A stretch of DNA of 37,150 nt, taken from NCBI GenBank assembly GCA_004195315.1, contig SDWL01000001.1:1-37150 (forward strand), given 5' to 3'. Source of the stretch: Lutibacter sp. Lineage in GTDB: Bacteria; Bacteroidota; Bacteroidia; Flavobacteriales; Flavobacteriaceae. Positions within the stretch are counted from its first letter, which is position 1, and each line of letters opens with the position of its first letter. Below the pieces are notes generated by a model. That model worked only from the letters and a program-made list of their open reading frames with translations, searched no databases and was not told the origin of the DNA. Both the position numbers and the translations under genes were made by a program. This document shows, one piece after another, positions 22,261-33,994 of this stretch.

Positions 22261-22437
22261 ATGAGATTAATAACAGAAGAAGTCGGTAGAAACAGAGAGG
22301 GAATTAGATTAGTTAGAAATTATTTTATGTATGATGACAAAACTAATTATTTAGTAAAAGCACAGTCTTATTATACTAGAGAAGAAAAAAAATTAGCTAA
22401 ATTAAATTACAAAAAATCAAATAAATTATGGAAGTAA
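22261..22437 (+). CDS. hypothetical protein, 58 aa
   Basis: hand translation MRLITEEVGRNREGIRLVRNYFMYDDK...; fills the gap. Confidence 0.5.
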   Translation: MRLITEEVGRNREGIRLVRNYFMYDDKTNYLVKAQSYYTREEKKLAKLNYKKSNKLWK

Positions 22438-22784
22438 ACGGAAGTATTAAAAGAATTAACGAAACTAAAACATACGGAGAAAGTGGTTTTAGAAAAAGGG
22501 AAATGGTTTTAACGACAAAAGACCAATACCCTCAAATGTTAAACATTGAATTTGTGCAAGATAAATGCGATATCTTAGATAAATATAAAGTAGATGACGA
22601 GGTTAAAATATCAATTAACTTAACTGGTAGGGAATGGATAAATCCACAAGGTGAAGCTGTTTATTTTAACGCTATACAAGGATGGAGGATTGAGAAAATG
22701 GAAGGTATGCAAACACCACCACCATTAGCACCTGTTGGAGATGCATTGAATGAAAGTAATGAAGTTTCAGATATCCCATTTTAA
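22428..22784 (+). CDS. DUF3127 family SSB-like OB-fold protein
   Basis: FRKREMVLTT...QYPQ...EFVQDKC...GREW...YFNAIQGWRI and acidic C-terminal DIPF. Confidence 0.85.
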   Translation: MEVNGSIKRINETKTYGESGFRKREMVLTTKDQYPQMLNIEFVQDKCDILDKYKVDDEVKISINLTGREWINPQGEAVYFNAIQGWRIEKMEGMQTPPPLAPVGDALNESNEVSDIPF

Positions 22785-25338: not shown

Positions 25339-27176
25339 TGGAGATAAACGGATTTGAAATAAATGAATATAATATATACGGAATAGCTGAAAAGTCTAAA
25401 ACTTCAATTTGTCCTAAGTGTTCACAAGATAGAAAAAAGAAAACAGATAAATGTATGTCTGTACATTGGGATACTGGATTGGGACAATGTAATCATTGCG
25501 GAGAAACTATACAACTACATACATATAAATCAAAGCAAGTTATAAAAGAGTATGTAAAACCAATCCTAAGCCATCCTAATATAGATTTAAGCGATAAACT
25601 ATTAAGTTATATGTTAGACGTTAGACGTGTAAGTAAAAGTGCGTTAAATACGTTAAAAATACGTGAATCAAAAGAATGGATGCCTCAAACAAAAAAAGAT
25701 GAAAATGTAATATGTTTTGATTATTATTTAGAAAATGAATTAATTAACGTAAAATATAGAGATGCACGTAAAAATTTTAAACTTTTTAAAGGTGCTGAAA
25801 AGATATTTTACAATATCGACAACATAGCAACATCAAGGGAGTGTATAATTGTTGAAGGTGAAATTGATGTACTTTCATTTGTTACTGCTGGGTATATTAA
25901 TTGCGTATCAGTTCCTAATGGTTTTAATTTAAAAGGTGACGTTAGTTTAGATTATTTAGATAATTATTATAATTACTTTGAAAATAAAGAAGTTATTTAT
26001 TTAGCTGTAGATAATGATGCAGCAGGAATACACGGTCAAAAAGAATTAATTAGAAGGTTTGGAGCTGAAAAATGTAAATTAGTAGATTTTAAAGATTGTA
26101 AAGATGCTAATGACTATCTTATTAAATATGGTAAAGATGAACTTTCAAACGTTATTGTAAAAGCGAAAGATGTTAAGATTGAAGGTGTATTTAGTGTTTC
26201 TGATGTACGTAAAAGTATGTTATATTCATATAAGAACGGACAAAATAGAGGTACAACAACTTATATTGATGTTGTAGATAAAGCTTTTACATGGAGAGGT
26301 GGAGAGGTTAATTTATGGACTGGATATAATAATGAAGGTAAGAGCTTATTGTTAAATCAGATGTGTACTATTAGGGCTTATTGGGAAAGTGCAAAAGTAG
26401 GTATTTTTTCACCTGAGAATATGCCAATAGATGATTTTTTTAATGATATAGTTGAAATGTATATAGGTAAAAGTTGTGATCCTTTTTACACTAATAATTA
26501 TATGAGTGAAGAAGAATTCAACGAAGGTATGGATTTTGTGGATAAAAATTTTTTCCTAATACACCCAGAGAAAGATTTTAAACTTGAATCCATTTTTGAA
26601 CGTGCAAGATATTTAGTAAGGAAAAAAGGTATTAGAACTTTAATAATTGACCCTTACAATACTATTGAACATAAAATGAGAAGTGGTGAGCGTGAAGATT
26701 TATATATAAGTAGATTTATGTCAGATTTAAAGCGTTTAGCAGTTGAATTGAATATTAGTGTTAATTTAGTTGCTCATCAAGTAACACCTAAGAAAAATGA
26801 AAATGACGAAGGTCGCTATCATAAGCCAATGTTAAATAATATTAAGGGTGGTGGTACATTTTCAGATAAAACAGATAATTCTTTATTTGTATGGAGACCA
26901 AATAGAGCCTTAGATTTTAAAGATAGTGAAGTTATTTTTGGTAGTCAAAAAATTAAAAAGCAAAAGTTAGTAGGTATTCCTCAGGATATTGATAATATTG
27001 ATTTTAATGTAAGAATGAATAGATATTTATTTAATGGTATAAGTCCATTTACTAAAATTGATTTTCATAGAAAAGGAATTAATATTGATGAAATAAAAGA
27101 AAAACCATTACCTATAATAGACGTAAAAGATGCTTTTGAAACAGAAGCTACAAGTCCAGATGATTTTGATTTTTAA
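25338..27176 (+). CDS. bifunctional primase-helicase (T7 gp4/Twinkle-like)
   Basis: Zn finger CPKC...CNHC, TOPRIM IVEGEIDVLS and DND, KDAND, Walker A TGYNNEGKS, IIDPYN, LVAHQ. Confidence 0.92.
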   Translation: MEINGFEINEYNIYGIAEKSKTSICPKCSQDRKKKTDKCMSVHWDTGLGQCNHCGETIQLHTYKSKQVIKEYVKPILSHPNIDLSDKLLSYMLDVRRVSKSALNTLKIRESKEWMPQTKKDENVICFDYYLENELINVKYRDARKNFKLFKGAEKIFYNIDNIATSRECIIVEGEIDVLSFVTAGYINCVSVPNGFNLKGDVSLDYLDNYYNYFENKEVIYLAVDNDAAGIHGQKELIRRFGAEKCKLVDFKDCKDANDYLIKYGKDELSNVIVKAKDVKIEGVFSVSDVRKSMLYSYKNGQNRGTTTYIDVVDKAFTWRGGEVNLWTGYNNEGKSLLLNQMCTIRAYWESAKVGIFSPENMPIDDFFNDIVEMYIGKSCDPFYTNNYMSEEEFNEGMDFVDKNFFLIHPEKDFKLESIFERARYLVRKKGIRTLIIDPYNTIEHKMRSGEREDLYISRFMSDLKRLAVELNISVNLVAHQVTPKKNENDEGRYHKPMLNNIKGGGTFSDKTDNSLFVWRPNRALDFKDSEVIFGSQKIKKQKLVGIPQDIDNIDFNVRMNRYLFNGISPFTKIDFHRKGINIDEIKEKPLPIIDVKDAFETEATSPDDFDF

Positions 27177-27194
27177 AAATAATTAAAAAAAGTA

Positions 27195-27224
27195 TTGTTT
27201 ATTGAAATAAGTTTTGTAGATTTG
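27195..27224 (+). promoter_or_regulatory. Bacteroidota primary-sigma promoter heading the cassette array
   Basis: TTG (27195-97), 19-nt spacer, TAGATTTG (27217-24). Confidence 0.8.
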
Positions 27225-27253
27225 ATTATTATTAACAATTAAAAATATATATT

Positions 27254-27403
27254 ATGACACGTTTAGAGAGATTAGATAAAAAATGTTGGAATGTAACAGT
27301 AAATATGAACGGTAACGGTGCAACAGCCACTAAAAATAACGGATTAATAAAGGTTACAGGTACAAGTATAACTAATTTGCATAAAAAAATAATAGGTTAC
27401 TAA
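27254..27403 (+). CDS. hypothetical leader protein, 49 aa
   Basis: MTRLERLDKKCWNVTVNMNGNGATATKNNGLIKVTGTSITNLHKKIIGY; its TAA stop overlaps the first TAAC of the array. Confidence 0.6.
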   Translation: MTRLERLDKKCWNVTVNMNGNGATATKNNGLIKVTGTSITNLHKKIIGY

Positions 27404-27482
27404 CTGTATAGTACATAAAATAGTACGAGTAAAAAAACAACAGATTTTAAAATATTAATTTAATAAATAAATACAAAAAAAG

Positions 27483-27935
27483 ATGAAAAAAACATTAGTA
27501 ATAAGTGCTTTCCCTGCGACTGGAAAAACCTATTTTTTTAATAATACAAAACTAAATGTATTAGATAGCGACAGTAGTAATTTTGATAAAAAAGACTTTC
27601 CAAATAATTACATAGAACACATAAAAAAAAATATTAATAAAGTTGATATAATTTTAGTCTCAAGCCACAAAGAAGTTAGAGATGCACTTGTGAAAAACGG
27701 TATTGATTTTATGTTAGTATATCCCAAGATTGAATTAAAAGACGAATATATCCAGAGATATAAACAACGTGGAAGCAATGAAGGGTTTATACAATTAATA
27801 ACAGATAATTGGGATGTATGGATTACTGAATTAAAAACACAAGTATGTTGTACAAAAATAGGATTAACAAAAAATGATTATTTAAGCAATTTTATTAACA
27901 ACTATTTAAATAAAAAACAGATATTATGGATTTAA
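27483..27935 (+). CDS. P-loop NTPase/kinase-like protein
   Basis: VISAFPATGKTYF Walker A variant, LDSDSS. Confidence 0.75.
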   Translation: MKKTLVISAFPATGKTYFFNNTKLNVLDSDSSNFDKKDFPNNYIEHIKKNINKVDIILVSSHKEVRDALVKNGIDFMLVYPKIELKDEYIQRYKQRGSNEGFIQLITDNWDVWITELKTQVCCTKIGLTKNDYLSNFINNYLNKKQILWI

Positions 27936-28237
27936 CAAAAGAGATTTTAAAAAAGATTGGAGAATACGAAACATTTAACCAAGAAGCGGAAGATTGTAAT
28001 TATGTGAATAAAATTTATTGGCAAGATTTAGCCAAAGACTTGAATGATTTATTTGCTTTGCACGGAGTTATACGGCAAAGCGAACAGTTAAAGGACAAAT
28101 ATGTATTAAGTTTTGAGGATTGGAGAAGTTTCTTATTTAAATACACTGATACGACCTACTTAATTGGAGATAGAGAGGTTTCAGAATATGAACTACCTGA
28201 AATATATAAGGAAACCCTTAGAAAGTTAAACCTTTAA
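27926..28237 (+). CDS. cassette protein crossing the GTT site at 28067
   Basis: ALHGVIRQSEQL is encoded by the site. Confidence 0.75.
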   Translation: MDLTKEILKKIGEYETFNQEAEDCNYVNKIYWQDLAKDLNDLFALHGVIRQSEQLKDKYVLSFEDWRSFLFKYTDTTYLIGDREVSEYELPEIYKETLRKLNL

Positions 28238-28298
28238 TTGCGTATAACTGCTTTGCGAAATGATTAGTACGAATAAATACAAAAGTAAATATCGAATT

Positions 28299-28493
28299 AT
28301 GGAATGGATTAATATAGAAGAAAAGTTGCCATTAGAAAACAAAAGACAACAAAGTGAAGATGTACTTGTTTATAATGGAATGAGTGAAATGCAAGTTGGT
28401 TATACATTAGAGGGTTTTTGGCAAGACTATTACGGTGGTAGAAATATAGAAAAGGTTACGCATTGGAAACCATTACCCGAAGCACCTAAGTAA
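28299..28493 (+). CDS. DUF551-like protein
   Basis: MEWINIEEKLP...VTHWKPLPEAPK; ATG 28299 preferred over 28260. Confidence 0.8.
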   Translation: MEWINIEEKLPLENKRQQSEDVLVYNGMSEMQVGYTLEGFWQDYYGGRNIEKVTHWKPLPEAPK

Positions 28494-28956
28494 GTATTAA
28501 TTATTTTGAATAGTTGTTATTAGTTTTTGCGAAAAAGGAACGTAGTTATAAATAATAATACTGTTAAATAACCAAGAAACCTTTTAATTACAAAACAGAT
28601 ATCGTTGCAAATATTAATTATCAACTTAATAGTACATGAAAAGTAACGGATAAATTAAAAACGATTAAGTAGTTATTTTTTATGTACATAGTTGGTGTTT
28701 GTGTTGGAATAGATGAATGACGTTAATTAATAAAAATAATACAACGGTAATTAATAACAATTACTCTAAACACATAAAGACAACCAATATAAACTCCAAC
28801 TGGATTTAGAGTATGAATTTTAAAGAATTCAAAACAAGCACATTTTAGATGATTAACACACTTAAACATAGTGACAGTATAGGCTTAGCAGAGAATTCAA
28901 ACTTTAATAAATTATTTTGATAGTTACCCGAAGTAAAGGACAAAAATAAAAATATT

Positions 28957-29148
28957 ATGGGAAATAAAAAAAGAACAGAAAAAGAATTAGACAAGATGTT
29001 AGAAAGTATTTTTGGTAAAAACAAAGATTTAGGTTTAAGCACAAAGAAAAAAACTTTTTGCGAATGCCAAAACCCAATTTACAATTACCCTGAAATGGTT
29101 TGGTGCGATAACTGTACTAAAGAAATAGTAGATAAGCCAAAAGAATAA
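28957..29148 (+). CDS. small CxC...CxxC Zn-finger-like cassette protein
   Basis: FCECQ...WCDNC; lies wholly inside GTT...AAC segment 28923-29173. Confidence 0.7.
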   Translation: MGNKKRTEKELDKMLESIFGKNKDLGLSTKKKTFCECQNPIYNYPEMVWCDNCTKEIVDKPKE

Positions 29149-29222
29149 AGTTAAACCTTTATTACGGGTTAACTTTACTGCGTATATGGCAAGATTTTTA
29201 AATAAAAAAACACAAAACAAAA

Positions 29223-29531
29223 ATGGATAGAAGTGAGATTTTAGATAAGATAGAAGAAATACAAGACGACGTTGACGCAAAGGGATTTATGGGGAGTAAC
29301 GAAAACGATCTTTGGAGAAGAGAGGCGATAGCAGACTATATAATTAAAAATTTTGTTATATGCTCGAGTTCTCTACAGTTAAAGGAAAATGAAACACTAA
29401 CTTTCGATGAATGGTATAAAACATTTGGATATTCAAAAACAATTGCACAAACCTATATAAAAAGAGGAATAAGATATAGTGAAGATGCTATGCGTAGTAT
29501 GTATAAGACAGAATATTTACATCAGCTTTAA
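29223..29531 (+). CDS. cassette protein crossing the GTT site at 29368
   Basis: KNFVICSSSLQL is encoded by the site. Confidence 0.75.
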   Translation: MDRSEILDKIEEIQDDVDAKGFMGSNENDLWRREAIADYIIKNFVICSSSLQLKENETLTFDEWYKTFGYSKTIAQTYIKRGIRYSEDAMRSMYKTEYLHQL

Positions 29532-29622
29532 TTGTTTAGAACTTTACACGATATGACCTTTTAAAAAAATAGGAATGCAAATGGCGATAGCCAAATATTA
29601 ATAATTAAAATAACAAAATATT

Positions 29623-29835
29623 ATGATAACAGAAGAATTATTTTATAACAAAGAATTATGTGATATAATTAGAGATATGGTTTTAAAAAGTGCTTGTAAT
29701 TTTGAAGATGCAAAAGAATTATTAGAGTTATCTTCTGATTATAAAAGGGATTCATTTATTATTAAAAAGCTAAAAAACTGTGGAGTTAGCACAAGAGAAG
29801 TAAGAAGAATAATATGTATGATAAATAACAGTTAA
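29623..29835 (+). CDS. hypothetical cassette protein
   Basis: inside AAC...GTT segment 29540-29882. Confidence 0.7.
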   Translation: MITEELFYNKELCDIIRDMVLKSACNFEDAKELLELSSDYKRDSFIIKKLKNCGVSTREVRRIICMINNS

Positions 29836-30032
29836 TAAAACGTGTAGATGGCTAATTTTTTTAATTGGTTATATTGAGAGTTAGTAGCTTTTTTAGGGAA
29901 GTTTTTCTAGCAGAAAATAAAAGTTAAACAAACATTGGTTAAATATAGAAGCGAACAAACACGGCGTAATATGCTAAAATTGCTTACTAACTGAATAGTA
30001 TAAGAAATGAATTAATAAAAACAAAACAAATT

Positions 30033-30182
30033 ATGAGAAAGCAATTTGAAGATGAAAAGAACCTTACCAAAATTGATTTTTGTGAGTGTATTAGCAGAAC
30101 AGGAATAGTTGGAGAAGAGTTTGAGCAATGGACTTGCCCTAGTTGTAAAAAGATAGTGTTTAACAAAAATAGAATGTACTAA
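30033..30182 (+). CDS. small CxC...CxxC Zn-finger-like cassette protein, 49 aa
   Basis: MRKQFEDEKNLTKIDFCECISRTGIVGEEFEQWTCPSCKKIVFNKNRMY. Confidence 0.65.
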   Translation: MRKQFEDEKNLTKIDFCECISRTGIVGEEFEQWTCPSCKKIVFNKNRMY

Positions 30183-30245
30183 GTAATTTATTTTTTATAC
30201 ATAGTTATTAAATTGTTAAAGAATAAAAATAAAACAGATATTATT

Positions 30246-30437
30246 ATGAACGCAAAAGACACAGCAAAAAGAATTGTAGACAAATTTATTTTATTAGGAG
30301 CTGCACCATTTGTAGCTAAAGAATGCTCATTATTTTTAGTAGATGAATTGATTGATGAAAAAAAACACGATCAAAAATGGCATTGGAATAGAAACGGACA
30401 TTGGTTTCAGGTAAAACAAGAAATAAATAAACTTTAA
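30246..30437 (+). CDS. hypothetical cassette protein
   Basis: MNAKDTAKRIVDKF...AKECSLFLVDELI...WFQVKQEINKL; ATG 30246 preferred. Confidence 0.75.
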   Translation: MNAKDTAKRIVDKFILLGAAPFVAKECSLFLVDELIDEKKHDQKWHWNRNGHWFQVKQEINKL

Positions 30438-30491
30438 TTGTTTAGAACTGTACACATAAATGATTAGTAAATAACAAAAAAAATAATAATT

Positions 30492-30791
30492 ATGAGAATA
30501 TCAGAAAAAGTTTTAAGAGAAGAATTAGAAAGACAAGAAATATTTTTAAAAACAGAGAAGAATTTAGGGTTTAAGATTAGTATAGAAAATAAAATACTGG
30601 AGTTGAAACAGGATTTATTAATTATTTGCAAGAGTTCTCTACAGTTGCCGAGTTTAGATGAAGTAAATGCCGAGATTGTAGATGTTGTTGGTAGAAATAA
30701 ACTATCGAAAAAACTTATTTTAACAAATAATGAATGGGCTGGGTTTGAGATAGGTTTCCGTAAATGTTACAAGTGGTTACTTAATAGGTAA
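30492..30791 (+). CDS. cassette protein crossing the GTT site at 30634
   Basis: DLLIICKSSLQL is encoded by the site. Confidence 0.75.
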   Translation: MRISEKVLREELERQEIFLKTEKNLGFKISIENKILELKQDLLIICKSSLQLPSLDEVNAEIVDVVGRNKLSKKLILTNNEWAGFEIGFRKCYKWLLNR

Positions 30792-30855
30792 TTGTTTAGA
30801 ACTTTAGAGTGTTTGGCTATTTTAAGTAAGTATTAACAAATTTAATTTATATAAA

Positions 30856-31077
30856 ATGAAAAAAGATATAGGAATAATTATTACAAATAAAGATGATGTT
30901 AAATTAGCTAAACGTATAGTTAGCAACCGTTTTAAAATTGGTTCTAAATGGAAATACAAGTACTATAAAGATGTGGAAAGAGAAATAGCATCTGAATTTG
31001 GAAGATATAAAGTAAAAATGACTAATGGACAAGTATTTTCTAAAATATTCCTAACCAAACATTATACACCATTTTAA
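30856..31077 (+). CDS. cassette protein crossing the GTT site at 30919
   Basis: KLAKRIVSNRF is encoded by the site. Confidence 0.7.
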   Translation: MKKDIGIIITNKDDVKLAKRIVSNRFKIGSKWKYKYYKDVEREIASEFGRYKVKMTNGQVFSKIFLTKHYTPF

Positions 31078-31121
31078 TATGTTTGCTAACTACATTAGAA
31101 TATGAATTTTAAAAATAAATT

Positions 31122-31286
31122 ATGGTTAGAGATATAACAGATATTATACAAACACTTTTAATATTGTACTTACTTTTTAGAGTAAGACAACAAGGTGGAT
31201 TAATAAACGAGATAACTAAAGAACTCTTAAAAACAGTAAGGAAAGTTTTTAATTGTTTATATGCAATAGTTGGTATTATGTTTTAG
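31122..31286 (+). CDS. small cassette protein, 54 aa, crossing the GTT site at 31269
   Basis: MVRDITDIIQTLLILYLLFRVRQQGGLINEITKELLKTVRKVFNCLYAIVGIMF. Confidence 0.55.
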   Translation: MVRDITDIIQTLLILYLLFRVRQQGGLINEITKELLKTVRKVFNCLYAIVGIMF

Positions 31287-31426
31287 GGTATTTATCCTAG
31301 CAGAATATTAATAAGACGATTACCAAAGGACAGAAAACAATTAGGAAAAACACATAGTAATATGCTAAAATTAATTGCAACTGTACACGTAAATGATTAG
31401 ATTTTAATAAACACAAAAGCATTACT

Positions 31427-31738
31427 ATGAATACAGATAAATTAGTAGAAATAAGACATAGAATACTGAACAATATAAAAGATGACAACCTTGAAGTTTT
31501 ATGGGCTTTAAATGATTTAGATACACTGATATATAAAGAAGAAAATTTAATTATTTGCAAGAGTTGTCTACTGTTAAACAATAGTTTGAAAGAAGGCGAT
31601 ACTGTAATTTATAATAGTGAAAAATTTACAATTAATTTCATAGAATTAAAACATAAAGTTGCAGATATTACAAGTGAATGTAAAACCCTTATATGTGGAA
31701 ATGTGCCATTGAGTAAATTAACAAAAATTGTTTTATAG
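31427..31738 (+). CDS. cassette protein crossing the GTT site at 31563
   Basis: ENLIICKSCLLL is encoded by the site; the C-half LKEGDTVIY looks SH3/KOW-like. Confidence 0.75.
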   Translation: MNTDKLVEIRHRILNNIKDDNLEVLWALNDLDTLIYKEENLIICKSCLLLNNSLKEGDTVIYNSEKFTINFIELKHKVADITSECKTLICGNVPLSKLTKIVL

Positions 31739-31896
31739 TTTACAACTGTAAATTATATGATTTGTACGGTGGCCACAAAATGCAAATTATAGATAATAAA
31801 ACAACGGCCGAGCCTATTACCATTGATTTTTATATAAGGCCAAAAGATAGTATAAATTATATGAATAGTTATTATTAGTTAAAAAGAGATACAAAA

Positions 31897-32106
31897 ATGA
31901 GTTTATTATATAAGAAAAAAGAAGATATAAGTACAGAAGTAGAGTTTAAACAACTTAAAGATGGAAAAATAACATTAGAGTTTAGTGCTGACTGTGGAAA
32001 GTTTGGGACTGACGAACCCCTTGATGGATATATACTAACACCTGAAAGATTATTACAAATTTTACAAGAAAGGGCTGATATTACAGACGAAGAAATGGAG
32101 TTTTAA
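31897..32106 (+). CDS. hypothetical acidic cassette protein
   Basis: inside GTT...AAC segment 31868-32117. Confidence 0.7.
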   Translation: MSLLYKKKEDISTEVEFKQLKDGKITLEFSADCGKFGTDEPLDGYILTPERLLQILQERADITDEEMEF

Positions 32107-32165
32107 TTAATTTTAACTGTACACGTATAACAGAATAACGATTTAATAACTAAAATTATAATATT

Positions 32166-32438
32166 ATGAATAAAGATTTTAAAATAGTAGAAGTTTCTGA
32201 AAATGAGTTTATAGTATACAAAAAATATATAGATAAAAAAACAATTGGCTATTTATGGTGGGAAAAAACAATAAACATTGATAGTTGGGAAAGGATAACA
32301 AAAAAAGGAGAAAGACTAAGTTTTAATAACTACATTTTTCAAATACAAACCTATGATTTAATAGAATATACTAATATTGAAGAAGCAAGGAAGTTTATTA
32401 AAGACGTAAATAAATATCCTAAAAAACACACTATATAA
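32166..32438 (+). CDS. hypothetical cassette protein
   Basis: inside AAC...GTT segment 32115-32471. Confidence 0.7.
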   Translation: MNKDFKIVEVSENEFIVYKKYIDKKTIGYLWWEKTINIDSWERITKKGERLSFNNYIFQIQTYDLIEYTNIEEARKFIKDVNKYPKKHTI

Positions 32439-32468
32439 TTACTAAAGTAAGTTATACTGTTATGCGGA

Positions 32469-32581
32469 GTTAACTGTGGGCTTTGGGAGGAAATGGAACG
32501 TAGATAATAAATAAAAGAATTACGAATAAATTAAAAGACAGTTATTGTTGAGGTGCAAGGCAAACCCAACTCACTTTTAAC
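32469..32581 (+). repeat. 113-bp non-coding cassette segment, copy 1
   Basis: roughly 85% identical by eye to 32772-32884. Confidence 0.9.
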
Positions 32582-32638
32582 TGTATTAGATAAAATTTAG
32601 TTTTAGGTAAAATATAAAAATAAATTAATAAAAAAACA

Positions 32639-32776
32639 ATGACACTAAGAGAACAATTTAGAAAAGAAAAAAACATAATAGGTGGAAAAAAATGGATTAA
32701 TTATGTAAACTGGGGTTCTTACGAAAAAGATTATGTAAACTGGCTTGAAGCTAAAATTAATTTTATTGATAGTTAA
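32639..32776 (+). CDS. small cassette protein, 45 aa, ending at the GTT site
   Basis: MTLREQFRKEKNIIGGKKWINYVNWGSYEKDYVNWLEAKINFIDS*; the stop is formed by AGT TAA across the site. Confidence 0.6.
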   Translation: MTLREQFRKEKNIIGGKKWINYVNWGSYEKDYVNWLEAKINFIDS

Positions 32777-32884
32777 CTGTGGGTTTTGGGAGGAAATTGA
32801 ACGTAGATAATAAATAAAAGAGCTACCATAAAGACTAAAACAATTATTGTTGAGGTTCAAGGCAAACCCAACTCACAGATTAAC
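32772..32884 (+). repeat. 113-bp non-coding cassette segment, copy 2
   Basis: GTTAACTGTGGG...CCCAACTCAC...TTAAC, duplicate of 32469-32581. Confidence 0.9.
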
Positions 32885-32940
32885 TGTATTACGAAATGAT
32901 TACACTTTAAGGAATATTGACAAATTAAATAAATAAAGAA

Positions 32941-33162
32941 ATGAAAAAAATGAATTTTGCTATTAGATTAGCTGGAGCGTTAATAATATATTGGATAATA
33001 TACAACACTTACTTTGGTTGGAATGAAAAACCACTTAGTCAAACAGAATTAAACTTAGACAATATTTATAAATATGGAATGTACTTTTGTACTTGGCTTT
33101 ATTTTTTGCCACTTTTAGATGTGTACGAACGTTTTATAGAAAAACACGAACGTAAAAGTTAA
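32941..33162 (+). CDS. two-TM membrane cassette protein
   Basis: two hydrophobic segments; inside segment 32882-33176. Confidence 0.7.
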   Translation: MKKMNFAIRLAGALIIYWIIYNTYFGWNEKPLSQTELNLDNIYKYGMYFCTWLYFLPLLDVYERFIEKHERKS

Positions 33163-33302
33163 TTATTTTGATAGTTAGCATTAGTTAAAGACAAGTACAA
33201 AAAAGTTAGCGTTTAAACAAAACAAGATAATTGGCATTAAGTAGTTGAGGTTTTTGCAATGTGAACTTTAATTAACTTGCTAACTACTGATAAAAAAACA
33301 TT

Positions 33303-33560
33303 ATGCAATACAAAACAGTAACATTATCAATACATTACGAATTGAAAATAAGATTTAAACATTGTAATTATATAATGTTTACTGATGATTTGAAAAGTGT
33401 GTTTAATTATAAATCAGGTAGTGAAATTACAACATCTAACAATATGAAAAGAGGGTTTTGGTTTAATCGTAAATTTTATATATTAGATAAAATAGAAGAC
33501 ATGATTGAATTGATACCGAAATACGAATATAATTATAATGATATATTGACAAATTTATGA
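33303..33560 (+). CDS. hypothetical protein, 85 aa
   Basis: first ORF after the array. Confidence 0.7.
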   Translation: MQYKTVTLSIHYELKIRFKHCNYIMFTDDLKSVFNYKSGSEITTSNNMKRGFWFNRKFYILDKIEDMIELIPKYEYNYNDILTNL

Positions 33561-33994
33561 AAAAAATAATAATAATATTAGTAGTTTTAATGTTGATTAG
33601 TTGTAGGTCGAAAAAAGAATACATACATACAACATCAAATGATACTATCAGGATTAATAGCATTGTAAAGATAGTTCCTAAACAGTTAAACAGCTTAGTT
33701 ATTGATAATGTTTGCGATTCAATAGGTATAGCAAATCCGTTTAACTATACATTCATATCTAATAATGTTAAAGGAACTGTAAAAAGTGAACATAACAAGA
33801 TTAAAATCGATGTAAATATAGATAGTATTGTTAATTCTTTTAAAGAAGAATATATAAGTAGTTTTAAAAGTAAAAATAAATTATTAATTGAAGAAGTTAA
33901 AAGACCGTTTAATTTGTATAGTATATTATTAAATGTTATATTAGCGGCTTGGATATTTAGGAAACCTATTTTTAGATTAATTAAACCTATATAA
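33557..33994 (+). CDS. lipoprotein with C-terminal TM, candidate unimolecular spanin
   Basis: MKKIIIILVVLMLISC lipobox and C-terminal LYSILLNVILAAWIF. Confidence 0.6.
   Translation: MKKIIIILVVLMLISCRSKKEYIHTTSNDTIRINSIVKIVPKQLNSLVIDNVCDSIGIANPFNYTFISNNVKGTVKSEHNKIKIDVNIDSIVNSFKEEYISSFKSKNKLLIEEVKRPFNLYSILLNVILAAWIFRKPIFRLIKPI

Follow-up and report, generated by a model that had tools for sequence, protein, structure and literature searches.

How does a phage in which no tyrosine recombinase can be found come to carry a long, gap-free series of small genes framed by fold-back arms, and what would move them? The question is raised by positions 27402-33284 of a Lutibacter sp. contig (GenBank assembly GCA_004195315.1, contig SDWL01000001.1), all 37,150 nucleotides of which were analysed and are referred to here as the window. 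The two ends of the window share a 99-base terminal repeat, closing it into a 37,051-base circle, and its portal, terminase, tape measure, primase/helicase and related genes identify it as a complete 37 kb siphophage genome of Bacteroidota type; Erf/Rad52-like, NinB, Rap and single-stranded DNA (ssDNA)-binding proteins are also encoded. Searches of the window proteins with PF00589, PHROGs and Pfam identified no tyrosine recombinase. We conclude, with considerable confidence, that the region is an array of 15 two-part cassettes in a recombinase-free phage, likely moved by an integron-like tyrosine recombinase that the host or another phage supplies. We classify it as an integron-like array without an integrase of its own, not as a canonical integron, and we infer both the acting enzyme and the excised circles. 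It likely represents a Bacteroidota-wide and apparently undescribed variant of such arrays.

Array architecture and arm pairing

The region is tiled without gaps by 15 A segments (AAC..GTT) alternating with 15 B segments (GTT..AAC). All 31 junctions carry a core (16 AAC and 15 GTT, the first GTT at 28067) in a uniform context, AAC-T in 16/16 and A-GTT in 15/15. An earlier note on this DNA had proposed the same alternating parse, and every core that it gave or implied was found in place, as were the four pairs of arms it quoted. Pairing was evaluated as the duplex energy of 30-nt arms on the + strand under DNA parameters. A arms pair with their own partners at a mean of -8.7 versus -4.8 kcal/mol for non-cognate arms, the own partner ranking top in 12/15; for B arms the values are -10.3 versus -5.4 kcal/mol, with the own partner first in 9/15 and within the top three in 15/15. 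In 100,000 permutations of the partners, the observed pairing sum was never reached (p<1e-4). For a parser blind to segment boundaries, the top-scoring chain of the + strand reached 135. The - strand gave 10 and three other regions of the window gave 13-15, and no score above 24.8 arose in any of 100 block-wise dinucleotide shuffles; at its thresholds the parser retrieved 20 of the 30 segments.

The covariation of each arm with its own partner, as the note had described it, hence exceeds both swapped partners and shuffled sequence. Its suggested comparison with shuffled controls was made with the parser; whole-segment folding at 37 C predicts the arm stem in only some units. Structure is conserved between segments whose arms differ, although several arms fall into sequence families, the A arms at 30446 and 31379 being one example and the B arms at 32469 and 32772 another. 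The count of 15 cassettes stands for the 15 A and 15 B segments present but not for their integrity: the first A (27402, 668 nt) has left and right arms that are each typical but unmatched, pairing no better than with a stranger's (own partner ranked 13/15), and is probably a hybrid, which leaves 14 intact A segments and one hybrid. That segment had been listed as weakly paired, a list to which the B at 30204 (-5.4) must be added.

Five A stems comprise 15-17 contiguous pairs, and the others contain bulges of 1-2 nt at varying places. The left arm of A is offset by +3 in 10/15 and by +4/+5 in 4/15, corresponding to a 6/3 spacer geometry, and the 6/3 strand is the better folder in 15/15 sites. 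Lengths of A range from 71 to 668 nt, with 11/15 exceeding 141 nt, and seven B segments of 110-113 nt lack a gene of their own. The array holds 16 open reading frames (ORFs) of 45-150 aa, on the + strand throughout, between the primase/helicase gene on one side and a lipoprotein-like gene on the other. All units share one polarity, and relatives differ by gain and loss with no inversion seen, which is not the layout of a shufflon or invertible segment. Fifteen sites on a circularly complete genome without PF00589 do correspond to the layout of a cluster of attC sites lacking an integron-integrase (CALIN), but the sites are not canonical attC; no Rfam match to them was found up to E 0.1. The units, all on the + strand, are as follows.

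27402..28248, + strand: unit 1, hybrid A of 668 nt with mismatched arms and B of 182 nt; two ORFs, 27483-27935 (phrog_4182) and 27926-28237, the latter reading through GTT 28067
28246..28625, + strand: unit 2, A of 270 nt with ORF 28260-28493 (DUF551) and gene-less B of 113 nt
28623..28800, + strand: unit 3, A of 71 nt and B of 110 nt; gene-less, the best folder of all units
28798..29173, + strand: unit 4, A of 128 nt and B of 251 nt with ORF 28957-29148
29171..29542, + strand: unit 5, A of 200 nt and B of 175 nt; ORF 29223-29531 crosses GTT 29368 at codon 49
29540..29991, + strand: unit 6, A of 343 nt with ORF 29623-29835 and gene-less B of 112 nt
29989..30448, + strand: unit 7, A of 218 nt (ORF 30033-30182) and B of 245 nt (ORF 30246-30437) with poorly matched B arms
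30446..30802, + strand: unit 8, A of 191 nt and B of 169 nt; ORF 30492-30791 crosses GTT 30634
30800..31090, + strand: unit 9, A of 122 nt and B of 172 nt; ORF 30856-31077 crosses GTT 30919
31088..31381, + strand: unit 10, A of 184 nt and B of 113 nt; ORF 31122-31286 stops just beyond GTT 31269
31379..31746, + strand: unit 11, A of 187 nt and B of 184 nt; ORF 31427-31738 crosses GTT 31563
31744..32117, + strand: unit 12, A of 127 nt and B of 250 nt with ORF 31897-32106
32115..32581, + strand: unit 13, A of 357 nt with ORF 32166-32438 and gene-less B of 113 nt, a paralogue of unit 14 B
32579..32884, + strand: unit 14, A of 196 nt, with ORF 32639-32776 stopping across GTT 32772, and gene-less B of 113 nt
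32882..33284, + strand: unit 15, A of 295 nt with ORF 32941-33162 and gene-less B of 111 nt

The 150-aa product of ORF 27483-27935 has a P-loop-like start, and DNA-level homologues of this ORF were identified in large Proteus, Xanthomonas, Bacillus and Tenacibaculum phages; the ORF may accordingly have been captured from outside the cassette system. Among three candidate homologues of ORF 30492, only the ORF itself was recovered.

Exchange at the two cores in related phages

Breakpoints were compared among seven Freya records (of 10 isolates) and five Danklef records, which represent near-identical isolates of Polaribacter phages. All seven array differences start and end at AAC, sharing 3-7 bases, and relatives gain or lose whole A+B units there, as expected from the earlier proposals that breakpoints fall at cores and that the A+B pair is the shuffled unit. 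For example, Freya_6 exceeds Freya_5 by 472 nt, exactly an A of 293 nt plus a B of 185 nt, and this A encloses a homologue (51% aa identity) of ORF 32941, whose A in the window measures 295 nt. Freya_10 is longer by 307 nt than Freya_9, by 902 nt than Freya_8 and by 3198 nt than Freya_5, and the arrays of Freya_1 and Freya_2 stop earlier. Five of the seven differences end at one AAC, 49 nt ahead of the 271-aa recombinase gene before which the Freya arrays end, so that Freya possesses an attI-like entry site. Across IMG/VR, arrays were found upstream of 6/6 Freya-type recombinase loci (5 distinct), ending ~0.1-0.4 kb away, and 0/5 of the other array-bearing phage records (3 of them <90% complete) encode PF00589. 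In Danklef, a 781-nt methylase unit distinguishes isolates _1 and _5 from _2, _3 and _4 by its presence or absence, again at AAC. The Danklef array thus varies among isolates despite a truncated recombinase gene: its first third is gone, and what remains directly abuts the left portion of an A site (Danklef_5, L088:7970-8483). This variation, together with the array phages free of PF00589, is in line with a recombinase acting in trans. Crossover at AAC and a recombinase-adjacent entry site hold for these relatives and, by comparison, would extend to the window array. Some Freya and Danklef cassettes (L079, L088) also appear to bear promoter-like boxes of their own and at least two genes, one with an adenine methylase.

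The corresponding end of the window array is the following feature.

33282..33305, + strand: terminal AAC, at the position of the Freya-type attI-like entry site and recombinase; here the next ORF, of 85 aa, belongs to no known family

Its position suggests an attI function, and its attI likeness otherwise comprises a loose AT-rich resemblance. In two other phages (L100:1-380 and L007:5734-5790) the array ends AAC-TACTATTA and a small gene, homologous between the two, comes next; these ends might constitute a conserved secondary entry site.

The GTT cores appear to serve a different kind of exchange. Window ORFs cross 7/15 GTT versus 0/16 AAC cores (Fisher p=0.002), and those of other phage arrays cross 27/82 GTT versus 1/92 AAC. 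Among 72 homologues of ORF 29223, 58 match the front half only, 10 the back half only and 4 span the joint. Their 42 tails form 38 clusters and their 11 heads 9 clusters; these homologues are proteins without DNA context and short tails under-cluster, making the cluster counts upper bounds, which tempers the argument from them. The back half of ORF 29223 is also that of a Danklef cassette gene with a different front, and protein P0057 fuses a front resembling ORF 32639 to a back half of ORF 29223 type. At the DNA level, the L007 phage carries a 188-nt A, 70% identical to that of unit 8, followed by a different B; the B segments of units 13 and 14 are paralogues although their A segments are unrelated; and two of the block ends between Danklef and Freya lie at GTT. 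Judged from these sequence comparisons, A and B halves likely exchange partners at GTT, building new small proteins by mix-and-match.

Segment lengths themselves are bunched. Window B segments fall into groups of 110-113 (7), 169-184 (5) and 245-251 nt (3), with a best period of 68 nt, and in the window plus 47 other loci lengths gather at ~55, 86, 123 and 190 nt for A and at ~62, 110, 175 and 250 nt for B. Relatedness between segments is limited: the 21 A segments of 180-205 nt form 19 unrelated clusters, and the 34 B segments of 160-195 nt form 31. Best periods are 76 nt for A (32 clusters) and 62 nt for B (99 clusters), with p=0.0005 against a +/-40-nt jitter, a null that addresses bunching and not strict periodicity; the A and B periods differ. 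Single-stranded DNA-binding protein (SSB) of E. coli wraps 65 nt. It is therefore conceivable, if speculative, that segment sizes are set in ~60-75-nt steps by SSB wrapping; the speculation lies in the differing flavobacterial values, measured as 31-32 or 45 nt in the available text of PMC3991886.

Chromosomal sites and the candidate recombinase

The assembly that holds the window (G000, in which the window is contig C292) also contains chromosomal sites of the A type. Because an initial scan used the 6/3 offset and G-T pairing as selection criteria, it was repeated with a sequence profile, which returned 25 matches, 21 of them full length (123-126 nt) with the 6/3 spacer of phage A segments. 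On the 6/3 strand the full-length sites show 56 G-T versus 0 A-C pairs, their outer stems pair without gaps, and in 18/18 host sites this strand is the better folder. Adjacent ORFs lie on the strand opposite to the 6/3 strand in 23/25, whereas phage genes lie on the folding 6/3 strand, as they do in 83/88 long B segments of other phage arrays. Because genes lie opposite in the chromosome and on the same strand in the phage, the folding strand tracks site polarity and not transcription, which argues for ssDNA, and against mRNA, as the main substrate. By its geometry, the A segment is the recombination-site type of the host lineage's chromosomal cassette system, for which two features were located.

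Contigs C11, C26, C47, C51, C90, C147, C169, C239, C275, C322, C386, C409, C427, C428 and C460 of G000: fragmented chromosomal cassette array
Contig C381, 753-1916: XerA-like recombinase (L003, at least 388 aa), probable enzyme of the chromosomal array

Of 14 orthologues of this recombinase in relatives, 11 were examined, and 7 of these have sites directly downstream (40 sites, 121-128 nt) and none of this family upstream; the other 4 lie 0.2-1.1 kb from a contig end. The IntI-specific insertion (I2) is absent from the host enzyme, with 22 residues versus 65 in VchIntIA, and the catalytic Arg-to-His distance is 89 in the host enzyme, 84-87 in the phage type and 132 in VchIntIA. Its TIGR02249 score of 194.7 bits falls below the cut-off of 265. 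Phylogenetic analysis placed the Freya-type enzymes in a group apart from the host-type group (support 99/99 and 100/99), and array-linked enzymes branch away from XerC/D-like rows; the best G000 match to a Freya-type enzyme is the host recombinase, at 32%.

Several further observations concern this chromosomal system. A number of its cassettes, 380-430 nt long, contain no ORF of at least 70 aa. In 4/6 relatives examined, a conserved entry-like stretch follows the recombinase stop (AAC, TTATAT and CCGG/CGGG ~50 nt on). Also identified was a second XerA-like group of 347-365 aa (L055-L058 in G018, G013, G020 and G002), with a 131-nt site of similar geometry downstream in G020. Contig ends of G000 carry a common adapter-like sequence, giving rise to spurious 'MCIRD' starts and a cut recombinase C-terminus (L001, L003).

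L061, L066, L067 and L070 (G023, G005, G022 and G006): entry-like stretch before the first cassette, with the recombinase oriented as the cassette genes
22428..22784, + strand: phage ssDNA-binding protein gene, phrog_4932, with 80.6% DNA identity to a gene on chromosomal contig C102 of G000
27217..27224, + strand: candidate Bacteroidota-type -7 promoter box upstream of the array, which would drive it from the far end

The match between the ssDNA-binding protein gene and a chromosomal contig, together with homologues of array genes in Polaribacter phages, points to a Bacteroidota host, and the protein is a possible helper of the array. The promoter box is one of six + strand matches within 27000-33600 to TAnnTTTG, which we take to be the Bacteroidota-type -7 motif, and is only suggestive.

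Together, these features allow a mechanism to be proposed. The + strand would fold when single-stranded and be the strand that recombines, with crossover at AAC moving whole A+B units. An excised unit would form a dumbbell circle whose long B stem holds the AAC/GTT core closed, offsetting the long loop and favouring insertion over excision. Consistent with such circles, a unit's own flanks pair better than its array flanks in 14/14 units, and the core is predicted to be paired (P>=0.5) in 8/15 circles versus 1/15 array contexts. If crossover now and then took place at GTT, on the opposite strand, the product would be a B+A circle, whose re-entry would create a new A-B pair and join the front half of one protein to a new back half; such other-strand excision would account for the half-protein fusions. 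Use of both strands is plausible because bulge-free attC sites recombine on both strands, according to the available text of Nivina et al. (2016, PMC5027507), and many stems here are bulge-free. The acting enzyme is likely an I2-less tyrosine recombinase from outside the phage and not IntI, and the likeliest candidate would be the host XerA-like cassette recombinase of C381, acting in trans. The array is likely live, or recently so.

Several points weigh against this account. Enzyme activity and circles are both deduced from sequence, and for the units at 27402, 28246, 29989 and 32882 the core is not predicted at 37 C even as circles. Host cores read AAC-G..T/G-GTT versus AAC-T..A-GTT in the window, and because of this difference in context the host enzyme may not be the one that acts; moreover, C381 ends at the recombinase gene, such that linkage of enzyme and array is seen in relatives only. 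The G-T excess in window A arms (31 versus 6 A-C pairs) reflects arm composition, since swapped partners show an equal excess (27 versus 8.5). Junctions of Freya_1, 2 and 8 coincide with the record origin and could reflect mixed-lysate assembly, although four of the seven isolate junctions are internal to records. Exchange on the GTT side was seen only between species (Danklef versus Freya) and not between isolates, and one back-half match (P0050) is probably due to chance. Variation of the window array itself was not found: no sequencing run was listed, and the locus is not shared by any of the 34 loci linked to a primase or the 46 linked to a phosphoesterase (80 related loci in total); 3/34 primase-linked loci have arrays elsewhere. 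Two junction motifs from the window gave no matches in IMG/VR, and an AT-rich A-GTT motif found 120 loci, of which one, the contig of L007, carries an array.

Alternative explanations and known systems

The enzyme need not be the host's. The array could instead have been moved by a small recombinase (~265 aa) of the Freya clade from a co-infecting or ancestral phage, or have been inert since the loss of that enzyme, with the host enzyme inactive on it. The well-supported separate grouping of phage-type enzymes (99/99, 100/99), an array with Freya polarity that ends where Freya has its enzyme, a core context unlike the host's, and the decayed appearance of unit 1 and of unit 7 B all favour this alternative. 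We nonetheless consider it rather unlikely, as a Freya-type gene was not found in the 88%-complete G000 assembly, the intact stems of 14/15 A segments suggest continued use, and the Danklef array varies with a truncated enzyme. A more distant alternative dispenses with site-specific recombination: the arms would be short homology linkers, and modules would be reshuffled by homologous recombination through the Erf/Rad52-like, NinB and Rap proteins that the phage does encode, with arms that come in sequence families. T4-type promoter stem-loop cassettes and lambdoid linkers are comparable in that such elements recur between small early genes and promote the shuffling of modules, relying on shared sequence and homologous recombination. 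Unlike these, breakpoints in relatives of the window share just 3-7 bases and always end on AAC, arms covary by structure with their own partner and not with neighbours, and the site family is tied to a tyrosine recombinase in chromosomes. Homologous recombination is thus an improbable general explanation, but may explain swaps on the GTT side even if not those on the AAC side.

Stems could also act in mRNA, in processing, stability or translation control, with the cassette appearance a by-product. Under RNA parameters A arms pair at -15.0 on the coding strand versus -6.5 kcal/mol, and ORF 28260 has its start codon within a left arm. Yet chromosomal sites of the same type fold on the non-coding strand, DNA breakpoints fall at cores, and Rfam offers no counterpart; we regard this explanation as very improbable and a primary role in mRNA as largely refuted, a secondary RNA role in the phage being possible. 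It is equally hard to sustain a canonical CALIN made up of ordinary attC sites and served by IntI, a reading to which we give very little credence. Integrons do share the AAC/GTT cores, the crossover at AAC, the complementarity of cassette ends and the strand bias (PMC5027507), and phage CALINs have been published (Qi et al. 2023, PMC9892861). Against this, the spacer is 6/3 and not 5-6 nt per arm, most sites are too long, and the linked enzymes are without the IntI insertion, with TIGR02249 scores under the cut-off. Furthermore, in the available text of PMC9892861, P12002L_attC1, a site of 6/3 type, is the one of six not recombined by IntI1; P12002L attC2, which as cloned is without this geometry, did recombine.

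Returning to the integron-like array with an enzyme in trans, which we prefer, its relation to integrons can be stated by component. It fails as an integron on enzyme, on spacer and length, and on gene placement: an IntI with the I2 segment is lacking in the phage and the host enzyme is I2-less; attC sites have an unpaired central spacer of 5-6 nt per arm and a length of 57-141 bp, a geometry taken from Nivina et al. (2016) and not measured here, to which the array does not conform; and genes do not lie between sites, on the non-recombined strand and pointing away from attI, as they do in host chromosomal arrays. The attC likeness proposed by the earlier note accordingly survives for the AAC/GTT hairpin sites but not for canonical form. 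Shared with integrons, as described in the available text of PMC5027507, are fold-back sites with AAC/GTT cores, crossover (shown in relatives) at the AAC of the better-folding, G-T-rich strand, and complementary cassette ends. The crossover side agrees with the 6/3 folding bias, from which use of that strand would follow. Freya-type phages and the chromosomes of host relatives further share with integrons an entry site next to a tyrosine recombinase. Differences comprise the 6/3 spacer, few or no outer-stem bulges, loops of up to ~300 nt with genes or gene halves, pairing of cassette ends over ~10-20 bp versus 7, genes on the folding strand pointing to the entry site, an enzyme without I2, and partner exchange at GTT. 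Among the 25 plasmid records listed of 418, no annotated IntI was found.

Related systems have been described in part. As in the phage CALINs of Qi et al. (2023), a cluster of sites lies in an integrase-free phage, and Polaribacter phage P12002L from that study carries arrays of the window type. Unlike here, the available text treats the sites as ordinary attC, with no account of genes in loops, extended stems, a dedicated recombinase or protein halves; 'Bacteroid' and 'Flavobacter' occur 0 times in its main text. A host I2-less Xer-type enzyme acting on a folded strand, with a stem free of extrahelical bases, is likewise known for CTXphi and other IMEX (integrative mobile elements exploiting Xer; Escudero et al. 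2016, PMC4792948, available text). CTXphi is thus a precedent for a borrowed I2-less enzyme on a bulge-free stem, but there whole genomes integrate at dif via XerC/D, and here many small units are shuffled within an array. Freya and Danklef (Bartlau et al. 2021, PMC8776804) share with the window A/B arrays, a homologous cassette gene and isolate differences at AAC, but encode their own recombinase, which the available text takes as a sign of temperate lifestyle for Freya; 'integron' occurs 0 times in its main text. Surveys offer little more in their available text: no integrons were found in Elizabethkingia with IntegronFinder (PMC11523902), Bacteroidota are named among phyla with integrons without detail (PMC8618304), and the text on IntegronFinder 2.0 names one complete Bacteroidetes integron. 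Beyond the phage CALINs of Qi et al., we found no published description of the system in a search that covered sources other than subscription papers.

Tentatively, and somewhat short of an even chance, we propose that Bacteroidota and their phages run a second, hitherto undescribed integron-type system on I2-less Xer-like recombinases, which phages use as a combinatorial gene builder whose dumbbell cassettes have two exchangeable loops, AAC moving cassettes, GTT splicing halves, and SSB wrapping of the circle setting loop sizes in ~65-nt steps. The system is open to direct tests in the Freya isolates, whose host is in culture. An I2-less enzyme acting on hairpin cassettes bears on how Xer-like ancestors gave rise to integrons, and sites that contain genes and have fixed loop sizes bear on the genesis of cassettes, both of which are open questions in the available text of Escudero et al. 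(2016, PMC4792948). If the proposal is true, standard integron surveys have largely missed this system, and much of the patchwork of very small hypothetical genes that Bacteroidota phages carry would be the product of programmed, site-specific gene swapping and gene building.

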